NCBI RefSeq assembly: GCF_055900595.2
Contig: NZ_JBVWEU010000010.1
Length of the DNA stretch: 4,996 bases
Source of the DNA: a plasmid
Reading direction: 5' to 3' (one strand)
Below are positions 1-4,996 of this stretch, in pieces; position 1 is the stretch's first letter, and the number at the start of each line of letters is the position of its first letter. Made by a program: the position numbers and the translations under genes. The notes beneath the pieces were generated by a model, which ran no database searches, was not told where the DNA came from, and saw only the letters and a list, made by a program, of their open reading frames with translations.

Positions 1-139
1 ATGCACGAACCCCCGTTCAGTCCGACTGCTGCGCCTGTTCCGGTAACTTTCGACTTGAGTCCAACCCGGAAGGCACGACAAAACGCCACTGGCAGCAGCC
101 ACTGGTAAGGGGTGTACAAGAATTACTGGTGCAGAGTTC

Positions 140-169
140 TTGAAGTTACAGCCTAACTACAGCTAAACT
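140..169 (+). promoter_or_regulatory. RNA I promoter (-35 TTGAAG 140-145, -10 TAAACT 164-169)
   Basis: TTGAAG is identical to the pMB1 RNA I -35 and sits in the conserved agagttcttgaag context; 18-bp spacer to TAAACT. Hexamers read directly from sequence; function inferred. Confidence 0.55.
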
Positions 170-175
170 GAAAGG

Positions 176-280
176 ACAGATTTGGTGGCAGCGGTCTTGT
201 ACACCCTGTTACCACGGTTCAGAAGTTCCCCAACTTACTGATCCTTCGAAAAACCACCTCCCCAGGTGGTTTTTTCGTTT
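176..280 (+). ncRNA. RNA I antisense copy-number control RNA (ColE1-type)
   Basis: Starts at ACAGA (cf. pMB1 ACAGTATTTGG) about 7 nt downstream of a TAAACT -10 box; ends at an intrinsic terminator (stem accacct 253-259 / aggtggt 264-270, then a T-run). Length ~105 nt and position relative to the RNA II promoter match ColE1 RNA I. Stem-loop sequences differ from pMB1. Confidence 0.75.
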
Positions 281-290
281 ACAGAGCAAA

Positions 291-319
291 AGATTACATC
301 CCGCAGGTTAGGATCTCAA
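291..319 (-). promoter_or_regulatory. RNA II primer promoter (-35 TTGAGA = rc of 314-319, -10 TAATCT = rc of 291-296)
   Basis: Reverse complement of ggatctcaagaagatcc..agatta gives TTGAGA - 17 bp - TAATCT, the same hexamers and spacing as the pMB1 RNA II promoter (ggatctcaagaagatcc is conserved). Confidence 0.6.
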
Positions 320-495
320 GAAGATCCTTTTAATCGGAATTCGACAACTCCAGATAAGTCATGGTGAGCCAGCCAACCCCTTCGACTGAATATCGTTCCA
401 AAAAAAGGCAGTCAGCTGAAAGAAACTAACAGTAGAACAATAATCTCTAGTACCCTGAATCTAAGCTAACAACAAAACTAGATTAGGAGTTATAG

Positions 496-1554
496 ATGGC
501 GATCTATGCCGTATGGAATAACAAGGGTGGTGTAGGGAAAAGTTACCTTACTTTTCAGTTAGCCTCTGAATATGCCAGACAGAACCCTACTAAAAAGGTC
601 CTGGTGGTTGACCTGTGCCCACAAGCGAACTCGTCCTCTATGTTACTTGGTGGAATGATAAATGGCGAAAACACACTAAACCAGATTCATTCAGCAATAC
701 AGAGAAAGACAATATCTGGATATATTGAGGATAGGATCAGAAGTCCATATATTCCTACCAACACTGGTTCTAGCTATGTAATAAATGTATCTACACACAA
801 TAGTAAAGTTCCAAATAATCTATATCTTGTCACTGGCGATGAACAATTAGAACTCCAAGCATCAAGAGTTGTTGGGGCATCATTTCCAGGTCCCCATGAT
901 GCATGGCGTACTGTTCACCTCTGGATTAATGATTTAATCAGTGACATTTGCAACTCATGGAATAATGAAGATAGCTGCGTATTCATTGACTGCAACCCTA
1001 GCTTCTCTATTTATACAGAGTTAGCTTTAACCGCAGCAGAGCGCCTTTTAATTCCTTTCTCTGCCGATGGTTCATCAAAGAGAGCAGTTAAGGCTGTACT
1101 TTCTTTAGTTTATGGTGAGCGTCGCCATCAGAATGAACCACAATCAGATTTCTATCTTAATAGCAATCGTTATTCTATGTCGCTACCACAAATATATATG
1201 TATGTTGGAAATAGATTAACGCAAATGAACAATTCATCTGCCAGTGCATTTAAGACGGTAGTAACCGAAATTGGTGATGAAATTTGGAAAGTATGGCAAA
1301 CAAAACCAAGTCTGTTTTGTATTCACCCAAATGGGAGCTCAACGCCAAATAATAAAAGATCTTTCAGGAATATGTTTCAGTATGAAGTAAATGATGCAAA
1401 CACAGCATCTGTCGTATCTGGAGCCTTAGGTATTCCAATCGCGACATTAACTGCAGGAAATAAAACTGTTTCAGGAAAAATAATAAAGGTTAATCAGACG
1501 CAGCTAGATAAACAAGTCCCCAACATTGTAGCTCTCGCTGGTATGATCGAATAA
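496..1554 (+). CDS. ParA/MinD/Soj-superfamily P-loop ATPase, 352 aa, with ~90-aa C-terminal extension of unknown function
   Basis: ATG preceded by AGGAG (484-488, 7-nt spacer). Deviant Walker A KGGVGKS at residues 10-16 (nt 523-543); ParA-type VLVVDLCPQANSS segment; Walker B-like CVFID (nt 976-990) followed by NPSFSIYTELALTAAERLLIPFSAD. Long uninterrupted ORF ending at a strong intrinsic terminator. AT-rich compared with the backbone. No symbol assigned because the specific family is not recognised. Confidence 0.85.
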   Translation: MAIYAVWNNKGGVGKSYLTFQLASEYARQNPTKKVLVVDLCPQANSSSMLLGGMINGENTLNQIHSAIQRKTISGYIEDRIRSPYIPTNTGSSYVINVSTHNSKVPNNLYLVTGDEQLELQASRVVGASFPGPHDAWRTVHLWINDLISDICNSWNNEDSCVFIDCNPSFSIYTELALTAAERLLIPFSADGSSKRAVKAVLSLVYGERRHQNEPQSDFYLNSNRYSMSLPQIYMYVGNRLTQMNNSSASAFKTVVTEIGDEIWKVWQTKPSLFCIHPNGSSTPNNKRSFRNMFQYEVNDANTASVVSGALGIPIATLTAGNKTVSGKIIKVNQTQLDKQVPNIVALAGMIE

Positions 1555-1556
1555 AA

Positions 1557-1590
1557 TAGCAAGGCCCTTAAAAGGGCCTTTTTTTATTTG
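1557..1590. terminator. Bidirectional intrinsic terminator between convergent genes
   Basis: Perfect 7-bp GC-rich stem aaggccc (1561-1567) / gggcctt (1574-1580) with 6-nt loop, followed on the plus strand by a T-run (1581-1585 and beyond) and flanked on the minus strand by a weaker U-rich stretch. Lies 3 nt after the ParA-like stop and just after the stop of the 1584-1841 minus-strand ORF. Confidence 0.7.
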
Positions 1591-1841
1591 TTTTTCTTTA
1601 CTGCTTGCAGCGCCCTGCCAGCACTAGAGGCCAACTCTTTGATTACATTATCTTTACTTTCAACAACCTCAGTAAGCAACTCGTTTTCGTTTTCCAGTTT
1701 ATTCAAAGCGTTCTGAGTATCTTCAATAGCATCATCATACCCTTCGGCATAGCCATCCATCCAACCAAGAGTATACGTTTGGTCCAAAAGATCAGCTTGC
1801 TTATCCTGCAGATCTTTATTCTGATTATTGTTAGAGCCCAT
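1584..1841 (-). CDS. Small acidic hypothetical protein, 85 aa (D/E/N/Q-rich, probably helical)
   Basis: ATG at 1841 preceded on the minus strand by TGAGGAAAAAAC (GAGG about 8 nt upstream); ends at the shared terminator. The plus-strand antisense ORF (1605-1901) starts with TTG, lacks an SD and is hydrophobic, so the minus-strand reading is preferred. No recognisable family. Confidence 0.6.
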   Translation of the reverse strand: MGSNNNQNKDLQDKQADLLDQTYTLGWMDGYAEGYDDAIEDTQNALNKLENENELLTEVVESKDNVIKELASSAGRALQAVKKNK

Positions 1842-2016
1842 GTTTTTTCCTCATTTGTTGGCGCATCTGAGTTTTCAAACCAGGAGGAATTCCATTTCTA
1901 AGTTTCTCACTTAGTCTGACTGGTGGTGTGTTTCCTGAGACTGGATTACAGTCAGCATCCACCCCGACATCTTTCTTTTTATAGTCGCCAATATTCCTAA
2001 CGTTATCTGTAGTCAT
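1831..2016 (-). CDS. Possible small basic protein, 61 aa, overlapping the start of the 85-aa ORF by 11 nt
   Basis: ATG at 2016 downstream of the AT-rich divergent promoter region; its last codons contain the SD of the next ORF (translational-coupling geometry). No convincing SD of its own and no recognisable motif; may be only a 5' leader. Confidence 0.3.
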   Translation of the reverse strand: MTTDNVRNIGDYKKKDVGVDADCNPVSGNTPPVRLSEKLRNGIPPGLKTQMRQQMRKKHGL

Positions 2017-2179
2017 AGAAAACCACGCCCATTGCTGTGAATAACCGAACTATAAACCAGAAAAAAAACGTACGGCTTATCATAACACTTGACACAAAAA
2101 AACACCGCTACTCTCCAAGCAAAAAACATAAAATTGGAAAAACAAAATCACAAGCACATGATAACAATAGATATTAATA

Positions 2180-2207
2180 TTTACTTACATTTAGTGAGTT
2201 TTATAAT
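2180..2207 (+). promoter_or_regulatory. Candidate sigma70 promoter for the 143-aa ORF (-35 TTTACT 2180-2185, -10 TATAAT 2202-2207)
   Basis: Exact TATAAT hexamer with a 16-bp spacer to a TTTACT -35-like hexamer, ~50 nt upstream of the ATG at 2259, inside a 240-bp AT-rich divergent intergenic region. Prediction by eye only. Confidence 0.35.
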
Positions 2208-2258
2208 TAGAAAAACAATGTAATTTAATAATCACAAACATTACCTAAGGACGAACTG

Positions 2259-2690
2259 ATGAAAATACCCGCGCATTTGAAGCATAAACCAATTATTCAA
2301 GTCGAAAATTACGACCGCATTGACGGCCCACATGCCGATGACACTGATGCTATGGGGCTATCTGTAGGTATTGCTCAATGGAACACTCCTGGATGGACTG
2401 AGCTTTCGGCAAAGGTTTGGCGAAACACAGGAGAAAAATGGTCAAGACAATCAGAAGAGCTGCCTCTTCACCGGGTAATCGACCTTGCAACTCTGATCTG
2501 TATCACCATGGACTACAGTAAAAATGGGCGACTTTCATCCAGTGATGATTTTCCCGTGACTCGCTCAACTGATAACCCTGAGCTAGCACATCACACTGAG
2601 TTTATGAAAAAAGAGTTAAAACAAAATAAAAGCAATCTTGATGTAAGCCTCAAACGCCTCTCGACTGAATTGAAGAGACTTGGCTATTAA
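2259..2690 (+). CDS. Hypothetical protein, 143 aa, unknown function
   Basis: ATG preceded by TAAGGA (2246-2251, 7-nt spacer); candidate promoter upstream; ORF ends 38 nt before the first Xer-like site. No recognisable catalytic motif; C-terminus is K/E/L-rich. Confidence 0.65.
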   Translation: MKIPAHLKHKPIIQVENYDRIDGPHADDTDAMGLSVGIAQWNTPGWTELSAKVWRNTGEKWSRQSEELPLHRVIDLATLICITMDYSKNGRLSSSDDFPVTRSTDNPELAHHTEFMKKELKQNKSNLDVSLKRLSTELKRLGY

Positions 2691-2727
2691 AACTAGCTTT
2701 AGAAATGTCTACCTACTTCACAGACGA

Positions 2728-2755
2728 ATTTACCATAACATCCGTTTTTCGAACC
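2728..2755 (-). other. XerC/XerD-type site-specific recombination site (cer/dif-like, 6-bp central region), site 1
   Basis: Minus-strand reading GGTTCGAAAAA-CGGATG-TTATGGTAAAT (11-6-11). The XerD arm is identical to the cer XerD arm TTATGGTAAAT; the XerC arm matches consensus GGTGCGnAnAA at about 7 of 11 positions. Shares an identical 20-bp core (aatttaccataacatccgtt, 2727-2746) with site 2. Confidence 0.6.
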
Positions 2756-2760
2756 ATAAT

Positions 2761-2778
2761 GGCAGGCTATAGCCTGCC
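2761..2778. repeat. Perfect 18-bp palindrome ggcaggctatagcctgcc
   Basis: The sequence equals its own reverse complement; lies between Xer-like site 1 and the stop codon (2784) of the 134-aa minus-strand ORF. No strong T-run, so a terminator role is uncertain; could be a protein-binding site. Confidence 0.5.
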
Positions 2779-2783
2779 GTAAT

Positions 2784-3188
2784 TCACCGGAAAAAATCAT
2801 CCACAGAGTCGCTCCACTCATGCCCGGAAAGAGACCACACCTTGTTTATAGGGGGAGGATAACCACTCCTGCAGTACCCGTTTTTTCCCACGAAATCGAA
2901 TGCCCCGTGCGGGTATCCATTGATCAGGAGTACGCACTTCTGACTGTCTTCTGACCAGCCAATTTTAACATCAGAAGGAATGTGACCGTCTGAAACGTCT
3001 TCGGCATTGTAGATGTGTACTGCGTCCATAATCGGGTTTCCCTCGACGGACTCATCGAGCGCATAGAAATACCCGGTCCGGCCATCGTCTTCGAACACGG
3101 CGGCCAGCATGCCCTCAGGAGCGAGGCTCTTTATAACCTGTTCCTCCCCGACAACGAGCTGGGCCTGTATCGTCACTAAAATGGTCAT
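2784..3188 (-). CDS. Hypothetical protein, 134 aa, GC-rich, cargo of the Xer-bounded cassette
   Basis: ATG at 3188 with AAGGAG about 10 nt upstream on the minus strand; the ORF fills almost all of the interval between the two Xer-like sites. No motif recognised. The overlapping 70-aa minus-strand ORF (3115-3327) is judged spurious. Confidence 0.6.
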   Translation of the reverse strand: MTILVTIQAQLVVGEEQVIKSLAPEGMLAAVFEDDGRTGYFYALDESVEGNPIMDAVHIYNAEDVSDGHIPSDVKIGWSEDSQKCVLLINGYPHGAFDFVGKNGYCRSGYPPPINKVWSLSGHEWSDSVDDFFR

Positions 3189-3245
3189 CAGGTCTGTTCT
3201 CCTTTCCTTGGTTGCTTCGGCAGCCAGCTTTCAGACAAGCGGATA

Positions 3246-3273
3246 ATTTACCATAACATCCGTTATCAGCATC
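3246..3273 (-). other. XerC/XerD-type site-specific recombination site (cer/dif-like), site 2; candidate plasmid multimer-resolution site
   Basis: Minus-strand reading GATGCTGATAA-CGGATG-TTATGGTAAAT; central region and XerD arm identical to site 1, XerC arm about 8 of 11 to consensus. About 300 bp of GC-rich sequence with no credible ORF lies on its XerC side (3274-3580), where cer-type accessory sequences would be expected. Confidence 0.6.
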
Positions 3274-3594
3274 GTCAGAAACGCGCTGAGGGCGTTTCTG
3301 ACGGGAAACCGGTAAAACAGGCAACAAACCACCCGAAAACCCGCCAGAAACGCGCAGGCTCTGTTTTTATGGCATGCATGAGTATGCACGCAAGTGCATA
3401 GCGCGAATATTCACGCCATTCAGACAGGGTAAGTCCTGTTTCCGGCGTTCTTCCCATCCGAAAACGGTGAACGGGGACGCAATTTATTGCGTGGCCGTGA
3501 AGCGTTGCCGGCGCAGCCGGAAAACCGGTTTTCAGCACGTTCAGGAATCGGGTTCGTCGACGGCCGGCAATCACGTTATGGCAAGTCGCCGGAC

Positions 3595-3784
3595 GACTCA
3601 CCACACGATTCACCGGCGACTCTGCACTAGAGTCGTACCTAGAGTCGCCGCGACTAAAAAACAACCAAACGGGGAGTCGGGTCTAGAGTCGGGTCGTTAT
3701 TAACTCATTGTTTTTATAGCCCTGAGTCGTTACCGACTCTATGACGACTCGCCGGGGACTCTATGACGAGTCGTCATAGAGTCG
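3595..3784. repeat. Array of 12 GAGTC/GACTC motifs (11 as the hexamer GAGTCG/CGACTC), including two pairs of tandem 12-bp repeats and nested inverted repeats
   Basis: Counted directly: GAGTC at 3630, 3642, 3674, 3686, 3724, 3768, 3779; GACTC at 3595, 3618, 3735, 3746, 3757. Tandem ctagagtcg at 3627 and 3639; tandem gagtcgggtc at 3674 and 3686; 13-bp gactctatgacga at 3735 and 3757 (direct) and 3771 (inverted). Chance expectation for a 5-mer on both strands in ~190 bp is under 1. Confidence 0.7.
3757..3783. repeat. 27-bp perfect palindrome gactctatgacgagtcgtcatagagtc (13-bp arms around a central G)
   Basis: Every position i pairs with position 28-i; sits at the end of the GAGTCG array, immediately before an AT-rich stretch (3786-3860). 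Confidence 0.75.
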
Positions 3785-3982
3785 GATCTATATAAATAAA
3801 ATTTAAAAAACGAAATCTCAGGAAAGTAAACTACTGATATTAAATACAAATCTGCAAAATTTTAATTTTGCGTGGGGTGTGGGTATTTTTAGTGGTGAGG
3901 AGCGTTCAGAGATCTGACTATTTTTGGGAAGGTTCAGGAACTCCCCGGGATGGCCGGAGAGGAAAACTGAAGCATGACAGGG

Positions 3983-4384
3983 TCAGGATTTTTTCCAGAA
4001 TTTCCACCATGGCGCCGGGGATTCAGTTAATTTTGCCTGGTGATTTTCAAGAAGGAGCATGGCCTGTTTCAGGCTGTCAATGTGCGAATCTTTGGACAAA
4101 AGTAAAGTGTTCAGGTGTTCAATCTCCTGTTTCAGATGACGAATCACCTGTTCACACTGGTCAACAGAGGCTGTATCGCGCTGTTCAGAGACCTGTCCAG
4201 AATGGTGTTCACCCTTCAGTTGTTCAAAGGGACCAAAGACACGTAAAAGCTCTGAAGTATCTACCATTTTTGCATTGCGCTCACCGCTACAGGTGGACAG
4301 GTCACCTGCTTTAATTAACCTGTGCAGTGTTGTTCTACTCTTACCCGTCAGTCGGGCTGCCTCACTAATAGACACTCTGGCCAT
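3983..4384 (-). CDS. HTH DNA-binding protein (excisionase/MerR-like HTH_17-type N-terminus) with C-terminal coiled-coil-like region, 133 aa
   Basis: N-terminus SISEAARLTGKSRTTLHRLIKAGDLS fits the excisionase-family HTH pattern (EAAxLxGxSxxTxxRLIxxGxL); the C-terminal half is heptad-like and Q/E/L-rich. Start ATG overlaps the rop stop (TGATG at 4382-4386), implying co-transcription and translational coupling. Its antisense 148-aa ORF is Arg-rich and judged spurious. Confidence 0.7.
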   Translation of the reverse strand: MARVSISEAARLTGKSRTTLHRLIKAGDLSTCSGERNAKMVDTSELLRVFGPFEQLKGEHHSGQVSEQRDTASVDQCEQVIRHLKQEIEHLNTLLLSKDSHIDSLKQAMLLLENHQAKLTESPAPWWKFWKKS

Positions 4385-4575
4385 CAGTTACCATCCTGTA
4401 ATGCATCCAGTCTCGAGGACAGTGTACGGAAAAGATGCTCCGCATCATCGTGGAGTTTCTCACAAAGGTCGGCCTCGACATCAAGATCAAGCTCGTTAAG
4501 CTTCTCCAGCAGGAGCAGAGATTGATGCTGGATGAATTTAGCCATGTTCAGCGCTGTTTTCTGTTGTTTCGTCAT
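4384..4575 (-). CDS. rop: Rop/Rom RNA I-RNA II interaction modulator, 63 aa
   Basis: Translation MTKQQKTALNMAKFIQHQSLLLLEKLNELDLDVEADLCEKLHDDAEHLFRTL... closely matches ColE1/pMB1 Rop (MTKQEKTALNMARFIRSQTLTLLEKLNELDADEQADICESLHD..., recalled from memory), with identical length of 63 aa; located just downstream of the origin in replication direction. Confidence 0.9.
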   Translation of the reverse strand: MTKQQKTALNMAKFIQHQSLLLLEKLNELDLDVEADLCEKLHDDAEHLFRTLSSRLDALQDGN

Positions 4576-4599: not shown

Positions 4600-4996
4600 C
4601 AGTGTAGGGATGTTCTCTCTTCCGCTTCCTCGCTCACTGACTCGCTACGCTCGGTCGTTCGGCTGCGGCGAGCGGCAGGAGCATACGTTATGAAAGCTCG
4701 AGAAAACCGAGCGATCATGTAATTAAGCAAAGGGCAACGAAAGGCCGCGCCGCTGGCGTTTTTCCATAGGCTCCGCCCCCCTGACGAGCATCACAAAAAT
4801 TGACGCTCAAGTCAGAGGTGGCGAAACCCGACAGGACTATAAAGATACCAGGCGTTTCCCCCTGGAAGCTCCCTCGTGCGCTCTCCTGTTCCGACCCTGC
4901 CGTTTACCGGTGTCATTCCGCTGTTATGGCCGCGTTTGTCTCATTCCACGCCTGACACTCAGTTCCGGGTAGGCAGTTCGCTCCAAGCTGGACTGT
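4600..4996. other. ColE1-type origin of replication region (RNA II 3' domain, primer RNA-DNA transition, conserved origin-proximal hairpin region); continues at 1-330
   Basis: Near-identity by eye to pMB1 over cttccgcttcctcgctcactgactcgct.cgctcggtcgttcggctgcggcgagcgg and ggccgcg..gctggcgtttttccataggctccgcccccctgacgagcatcacaaaaat.gacgctcaagtcagaggtggcgaaacccgacaggactataaagataccaggcgtttccccctggaagctccctcgtgcgctctcctgttccgaccctgcc. The RNA-DNA switch is expected near 4735-4745 (inference, not mapped). Confidence 0.85.
4738..4996 (-). ncRNA. RNA II replication primer precursor, 3' portion up to the origin
   Basis: Continuation of the minus-strand RNA II from position 1 across the circular junction; the 3' boundary is approximate and placed by analogy with pMB1, where the primer ends near the ggccgcg..gctggcgttttt motif. 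Confidence 0.65.

Follow-up and report, generated by a model that had tools for sequence, protein, structure and literature searches.

We identified a 518-bp module, carrying a single gene of the DUF2251 family, in a 4996-bp stretch of plasmid DNA (hereafter the window; contig NZ_JBVWEU010000010.1), which reads as an entire circular ColE1-like plasmid. The module is bounded on both sides by 28-bp cores of the type recognised by the recombinases XerC and XerD, and one of these belongs to what we take to be the cer-type multimer-resolution site of the plasmid. We propose, with a probability of roughly 0.75, that the module entered the core of this cer-type site through the action of the XerC and XerD proteins of the host, most likely by the formation of a cointegrate and its subsequent resolution. 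The end-to-end matches of the window in PLSDB, at about 99.3% identity, come from Klebsiella, E. coli and Enterobacter and are about 4991 bp long.

Both cores lie on the minus strand. Site 1, the module-borne core without accessory sequence, spans positions 2728-2755 and reads GGTTCGAAAAA-CGGATG-TTATGGTAAAT, with the XerD arm TTATGGTAAAT at 2728-2738, the central region CGGATG at 2739-2744 and the XerC arm GGTTCGAAAAA at 2745-2755. Site 2, the cer-type core, spans 3246-3273 and reads GATGCTGATAA-CGGATG-TTATGGTAAAT, with the XerD arm at 3246-3256, the same central region at 3257-3262 and the XerC arm GATGCTGATAA at 3263-3273. The sites are direct repeats, 518 bp apart from start to start, and have in common a 20-nt exact stretch, AATTTACCATAACATCCGTT (2727-2746 and 3245-3264), which is the longest exact direct repeat in the window. 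First-order Markov simulations (n = 300) gave a longest repeat of 11.7 nt on average and of at most 18 nt, and a shared 20-mer has an analytic expectation of about 1e-5. Both sites have exactly the XerD arm of ColE1 cer. On its own, with two mismatches allowed, the XerD-arm motif has three matches against 1.7 expected, which is not above chance; the significance of the repeat thus derives from two exact copies in a complete site architecture, and not from this motif. A candidate third Xer site at 3576-3586, XerD-like with two mismatches, has no adjacent XerC-like arm, did not pass the combined scan and was rejected.

The first-pass annotation of the window had described two 28-bp Xer cores in the same orientation, 518 bp apart, with identical CGGATG central regions and the XerD arm of cer, and we recovered each of these features. 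It had also called the XerC arms degenerate, which overstates their divergence: the arm of site 1 is one base off GGTTCGAACAA, the arm conserved in all other copies of the module, and GGTTCGAACAA itself matches the ColE1 cer XerC arm at 9 of 11 positions by our own count. The difference is a single C-to-A change in the module XerC arm of the window family, at the position adjoining the central region. The XerC arm of site 2 reads GGTGCTGATAA in the sibling plasmid L003. The 134-aa open reading frame (ORF) that had been reported as bracketed by the sites lies wholly inside them, at 2784-3188 on the minus strand, and encodes a DUF2251 protein (Pfam DUF2251, E 8.8e-35). It is preceded by a Shine-Dalgarno sequence, AAGGAG, at 3199-3204, and just past its stop codon, still inside the module, is a terminator-like hairpin, GGCAGGCTATAGCCTGCC (2761-2778, minus strand).

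The two sites differ in the DNA that adjoins them. Alignment with ColE1 cer places a cer-type accessory sequence next to site 2, at 3274-3470 on the minus strand, which contains an ARG-box-like element, TGCATACTCATGCAT (about 3372-3391, minus strand), and a block, GGGTGGTTTGTTGCC, in common with ColE1 cer. The identity of this accessory DNA to that of ColE1 is 63% over 180 nt, compared to a mean of 49.7% and a maximum of 54.7% for shuffled sequence. In contrast, the 180 nt on the XerC side of site 1, which are made up of DUF2251 coding sequence and terminator, show 52% identity to the ColE1 cer accessory DNA, equal to the shuffled level. The orientation of cer-type sites relative to the origin has been reported to be invariant, in the same direction as RNAII (PMC2831885). 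RNAI is encoded on the plus strand of the window (177-278, Rfam), placing RNAII on the minus strand, and the order of accessory sequence, XerC arm and XerD arm at site 2 likewise runs on the minus strand. Site 2 has the core architecture, the accessory sequence and the orientation of a cer-type site, and site 1 lacks the accessory sequence. From these features we identify site 2 as the predicted multimer-resolution site of the plasmid, with an accessory function of the ArgR/PepA type expected from homology, and site 1 as a bare core that travels with the module and is no cer site. Thus the two direct repeats are compatible, in agreement with the first-pass annotation, and not equivalent, accessory sequence being present at site 2 alone.

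We found plasmids with and without the module that differ precisely by this unit. The presence/absence unit lies at 2727-3244, a placement that is ambiguous within the 20-nt repeat, such that 2747-3264 is equivalent. The module is carried by about 25 plasmids in PLSDB, with a length of about 4991 bp, and is missing from 11 close relatives (ten plasmids of 4471-4473 bp and one 23-kb plasmid); the size difference between 4991 and 4473 bp is exactly 518 bp. The four empty plasmids that were inspected (L001, L002, L003 and the Tn5403-bearing L056) have one site each, with the 518 bp absent as a single block. To this single site, site 2 contributes the XerC arm and the right flank and site 1 the left flank, and the core is the one common to both. 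Whole-plasmid alignment of the window with L001 and L002 shows, outside the 518-bp block, two substitutions over positions 1-3623. A single gain of the module in the lineage of the window may be slightly more parsimonious than its repeated loss because the more divergent sibling L003 is also empty, although this preference is weak because the sibling plasmids are mosaic. Filled and empty forms were also found on a second backbone, which carries a restriction-modification system, where the filled L008 and the empty L017 have an identical left flank. No empty relative of the backbone of L009 and L011 was found in PLSDB, which returned half-matches only.

The module recurs in many plasmid contexts. 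PLSDB plasmids and metagenome contigs together yielded 26 copies. Among these we distinguished 15 left flanks and 11 XerC arms of the partner site, and one left flank pairs with four different right-hand sites. The core spacing is 518 bp in all copies with both ends visible (24/24), and all copies have their sites in direct repeat, are located at cer-type cores of plasmids, and occur on small plasmids or small contigs. In every copy homology to the window starts exactly at 2728, the outer end of the XerD arm, and where the adjoining DNA is unrelated (L013, L014) it stops at 3264. At 95-100% identity, the module is found in many other small plasmids with differing cargo, including MbeB/MbeD or MobA/MobC mobilisation genes, a methyltransferase, a NERD protein and toxin-antitoxin genes, and it is also present on pmS2H5-GES24_2, a 20-kb plasmid whose name refers to GES-24. 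When metagenomes were scanned for cores with the GGTTC-type arm, 29 contigs were returned, 15 of which have a DUF2251 tblastn match, and L046 adds a module end at a contig edge. With its one-gene unit bounded by cores on both sides, its varied contexts and its breaks in homology at the cores, the module has the hallmarks of an Xer module.

The site carried by the module, GGTTCGAACAA-CGGATG-TTATGGTAAAT, is constant among the other copies. Within PLSDB this exact 28-mer occurs in only 11 plasmids, all of them carriers of the DUF2251 module, and it has no match in the species-representative genomes. In 19 copies the module arm is joined to CGGATG and the partner arm to CAGATG, the exception being L042, in which the module arm is joined to CAGATG. 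The effective crossover would on this pattern fall on the XerD side of position 2 of the central region, up to the outer end of the XerD arm. We draw no firm conclusion from it on the order of strand exchange, because of the L042 exception and because any such conclusion depends on the pre-insertion sites of the backbones.

Other small genes were found between sites of the same type, which the first-pass annotation had proposed to look for. A unit of about 430 bp with a conserved 56-aa ORF (MSKxPIGTTASTGQKCPESG...) is bounded by like cores in L020 (1691-2147) and L036 (758-1202), and a unit with a 94-aa ORF in L044 (2044-2514); neither ORF has a match in NCBIfam. In L013, a unit (3519-4099) with a YdgH/BhsA-like gene stands in tandem with the DUF2251 module, between the module and a full cer-type site, and L010 and L018 contain further small units bounded by like Xer sites. 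Together with the precise empty siblings and the identical ends in many plasmids, these units bear out the original reading of an Xer-mobilised cassette.

The host recombinases XerC and XerD are probably responsible for the movement of the module, since the module has entered the cer cores of many plasmids, each time with its breakpoints at the core, and no transposase, integrase, terminal inverted repeat or attC was found. There is precedent in E. coli, where XerCD deletes genes that lie between Xer sites in direct repeat (PMC9113270). The mobile unit would consist of the DUF2251 gene with its own ribosome-binding site and terminator, and of an accessory-less XerC half-site and central region (GGTTCGAA[C/A]AA-CGGATG). 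XerC and XerD of the host would bind both cores and catalyse an exchange between the module core and the plasmid core, inside the stretch of central region and XerD arm that they have in common. The product would read, in order, accessory DNA, plasmid XerC arm, central region, XerD arm, gene, module XerC arm, central region, XerD arm and backbone, giving a pair of direct repeats resembling attL and attR. We envisage that this would occur in two steps. A rare, accessory-independent exchange between the module core of a donor and the cer core of a co-resident plasmid would fuse the two plasmids. The cointegrate would then have two full cer sites, and the usual efficient resolution between these, which depends on accessory sequence, would separate the plasmids again, leaving the donor without the module and the recipient with the module at its cer core. 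We infer the Xer dependence, the route and the direction of any single event from comparison of sequences.

Several points weigh against this account. The binding of XerC and XerD to both cores, and catalysis there, are predictions from sequence, and the C-to-A change in the window may weaken the XerC arm of its module. Both partners in recombination at cer-type sites normally require accessory sequence, which site 1 lacks; according to the older literature on ColE1 cer derivatives, a 6-bp central region can relax this requirement. The 20-nt repeat could allow deletion independently of any recombinase, and the empty siblings alone are no proof of Xer action. The junction expected of a circle or a tandem (module end, core, module start) had 0 matches in metagenome contigs and 0 in representative genomes, which is a weak negative. 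Xer cassettes of Acinetobacter, even those in direct repeat with the same central region, showed no excision in vivo (PMC11705084).

The module could instead travel as a free circle, if XerC and XerD recombined sites 1 and 2 within one molecule to release a non-replicating 518-bp circle with a hybrid core, which would then integrate in another cer core. Direct repeats with identical central regions are the geometry that normally allows Xer excision (PMC11705084), engineered cassettes between direct psi sites, both with accessory sequences, leave as minicircles (PMC9113270), and the empty siblings are exactly the predicted deletion product. However, only one of the two sites here has accessory sequence, the natural Acinetobacter cassettes, including one in direct repeat, were not excised in vivo (PMC11705084), and the junction of the free circle that the first-pass annotation had predicted was absent from both collections scanned (again a weak negative). 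A 518-bp circle would moreover be short-lived and would need an intermolecular, accessory-independent integration, and the filled plasmid is stably present in isolates from several hosts and sources. We consider this route rather unlikely, and a cointegrate followed by resolution to be at least as likely. The latter is favoured because accessory DNA is present at one site only, because Xer-dependent cointegrates form without excision in Acinetobacter plasmids, for which a model of cointegration and resolution has been proposed (PMC11705084), because cointegrate models exist for ColE-type plasmids (Tran 2012 and Zakharova 2002, as relayed by papers that cite them), and, weakly, because neither scan found a circle or tandem junction.

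Two further explanations dispense with XerC and XerD. The 4473-bp siblings could have arisen by replication slippage or short-homology recombination over the 20-nt repeat; with two such identical stretches 518 bp apart, a multicopy plasmid could plausibly undergo deletion without a recombinase, which would yield the same empty-site sequence. This would leave unexplained the insertions at many cer cores, with 15 left flanks, 11 partner arms and breakpoints at the core, as well as the full architecture of XerC arm, central region and XerD arm on both sides, the private and conserved XerC arm of the module, and the other cargo genes with like bounding sites, and we regard it as very improbable. 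Even less probable, to the point of being negligible, is that the unit belongs to the conventional mobile elements, as an integron cassette or as a transposon that has duplicated its target, and that its ends resemble Xer sites only by coincidence. The core at both ends does superficially look like a target-site duplication, but what is duplicated is the recombination core that the empty plasmid already had, and not a random target. The sole ORF of the module is the DUF2251 gene, with no transposase or integrase, and no terminal inverted repeats were found, in disagreement with a transposon or insertion sequence. Nor does the window contain an intI gene or an attC-like element, the ends of the module being Xer cores, in disagreement with an integron gene cassette.

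Xer modules have been described overwhelmingly in Acinetobacter, with few cases elsewhere. The DUF2251 module resembles the pdif/dif modules of Acinetobacter Rep_3 plasmids, which are also small gene units bounded by accessory-less 28-bp XerC/XerD cores, occur in different plasmid contexts and in module arrays, and owe their attributed mobility to host XerCD. It differs from them in its Enterobacteriaceae host and ColE1-like replicon, and in the geometry of its sites, which are direct repeats, whereas those of pdif modules are mostly inverted or have unlike central regions. In addition, one flanking site is a full cer-type site with predicted ArgR/PepA-type accessory DNA, paired with a private bare core; exact filled and empty pairs are found; the cargo is a DUF2251 gene instead of a resistance gene; and the module lies on the XerD side of cer, a position that allows tandem arrays to form. 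We regard it as a variant rather than a member of the Acinetobacter class, since its sites are in direct repeat and not inverted.

Similarly, site 2 resembles the cer-type sites of ColE1 (cer) and pJHCMW1 (mwr) in its XerD arm, cer-like XerC arm, accessory homology and orientation relative to the origin. The central region of ColE1 cer is 8 bp long, compared to the 6-bp CGGATG found here; a length of 6 bp, with GATG at the end, is also known from the central regions of other cer-like sites such as mwr. The plasmid differs further in its extra accessory-less core 518 bp away, which is not needed for resolution. Xer sites have reportedly been implicated in the evolution of ColE-type plasmids by Tran et al. 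2012, for qnrB19 plasmids, and by Zakharova et al. 2002, for pECL18/pKPN2, according to papers that cite them. Their model, which combines oriT and Xer sites, treats the Xer sites of small enterobacterial plasmids as breakpoints for the exchange of segments through cointegrates. It reportedly has oriT as the second breakpoint and large variable regions being swapped, whereas here both breakpoints are Xer cores and the segment is a 518-bp module of one gene.

Two other systems place DNA between directly repeated Xer sites. Integrative mobile elements exploiting Xer (IMEX; CTX-phi, VGJ-phi, TLC-phi and the gonococcal island) carry one dif-like site that integrates in a resident Xer site, resulting in two direct Xer sites. 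The target here is in contrast the cer site of a plasmid and not a chromosomal dif, and the module has 518 bp only, with no replication, phage or transfer functions. In Xer-cise and X-mark, a gene placed between directly repeated Xer sites is deleted by native XerCD (PMC9113270); X-mark has accessory sequence at both psi sites, and the natural module at only one. We found no description of a DUF2251 Xer module in the literature, in a search whose coverage did not extend to key subscription papers, and a prior description is possible.

We tentatively extend these observations to a broader scheme, to which we give somewhat less than even odds. Small ColE1-like plasmids of Enterobacteriaceae may use the cer core, in the manner of an integron attI, to dock one-gene Xer cassettes with private, accessory-less half-sites (XerC arm GGTTC..., central region usually CGGATG or CAGATG), which would accumulate in tandem on the XerD side of cer and be shuffled between co-resident plasmids by host XerCD. 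If this is true, docking at cer would constitute recombinase-free gene capture in the Xer host that has been studied best, and the filled and empty plasmids would be its natural substrates. The data suggest a hotspot of gene capture at the cer site of clinical Col-type plasmids, which are very common, and this bears on how small plasmids acquire accessory genes.

Recent work on the movement of Xer-flanked modules in Acinetobacter has seen cointegrates and neither excision nor gene exchange (PMC11705084). In E. coli and Klebsiella, for which the genetics and biochemistry of XerC, XerD, PepA, ArgR and FtsK are mature, the DUF2251 module occurs in natural filled and empty pairs and has inserted independently in many contexts. 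The combination of a full cer site and a bare core is a configuration in which cointegration followed by resolution can be tested against excision of a circle. The main value of the module is thus as a tractable natural system for how Xer modules move, its DUF2251 cargo being without known clinical importance.

The cargo protein had been said to have no recognisable function. This is nearly right: the protein is a clear member of DUF2251, a family of unknown function. The family is widespread in Enterobacterales and Pseudomonas, with members that are nearly all about 134 aa long. No sequence match to the cargo protein was found in NCBIfam, PADLOC or the Protein Data Bank (PDB). Its AlphaFold model is confident and all-beta, and a structural search with this model gave no informative neighbour. 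In Citrobacter chromosomes (L052-L055), a homologue of 79% identity ends arrays of Hcp-pyocin/colicin DNase toxin genes and Colicin_Pyocin immunity genes, and on a Klebsiella IncFIB plasmid (L006) a homologue lies close to a bacteriocin immunity gene and a GIY-YIG nuclease. A homologue in Providencia has an unrelated context. These neighbourhoods give only a hint of an immunity-like role.

A consensus scan of 2600-3500 found no promoter for the DUF2251 gene. By eye, the XerD arm together with the base that follows it, TGGTAAATT, looks similar to an extended -10 element reading into the gene, a likeness to which we attach little weight. The DUF2251 genes of the large Klebsiella IncFIB plasmids L006 (about 3480-3510) and L007 (about 3475-3505) are 82-84% identical to that of the module, and have just upstream a relic of the XerD arm and central region, AATCTACCATAACATCCC. 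The relic has no XerC arm, and there is no site at the other end of the gene; these copies look like an old, decayed insertion or the source of the module.

The remainder of the plasmid encodes Rop (4384-4575, minus strand), a helix-turn-helix (HTH) DNA-binding protein (3983-4384, minus strand; weak match to the plasmid replication DNA-binding protein NF038291), a DUF6530 protein, and an orphan ParA-like ATPase of 352 aa (496-1554). The ATPase has no obvious ParB partner or centromere on this high-copy ColE1-type plasmid, and after its gene come two small ORFs (85 and 61 aa) on the opposite strand. The HTH gene is followed, past its stop codon, by a region of dense GACTC-rich repeats at 3590-3800, including a perfect 19-nt inverted repeat (3733-3751 and 3767-3785) and direct repeats at 3614-3691. 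This region may comprise binding sites of the HTH protein, or may be an oriT-like region. The Tn3-family transposon Tn5403 has inserted independently in the empty relative L056 and in a filled relative (L057), at window-equivalent positions of about 3761-3773 and about 4440-4448, and the insertion in L056 falls within the repeat region.

Between the window and its 4991-bp sibling L004, all 29 substitutions and the small indels are confined to 4619-4901, and the sequences are otherwise identical. This stretch of about 280 bp, in the region of RNAII and the origin, looks like a recombinant patch in replication control. Finally, four PLSDB records labelled Enterococcus faecium (NZ_CP059753.1, NZ_CP072739.1, NZ_CP072728.1 and NZ_CP061825.1) carry the ColE1-like plasmid or a 2574-bp piece of it, labels which probably reflect assembly contamination or mislabelling.

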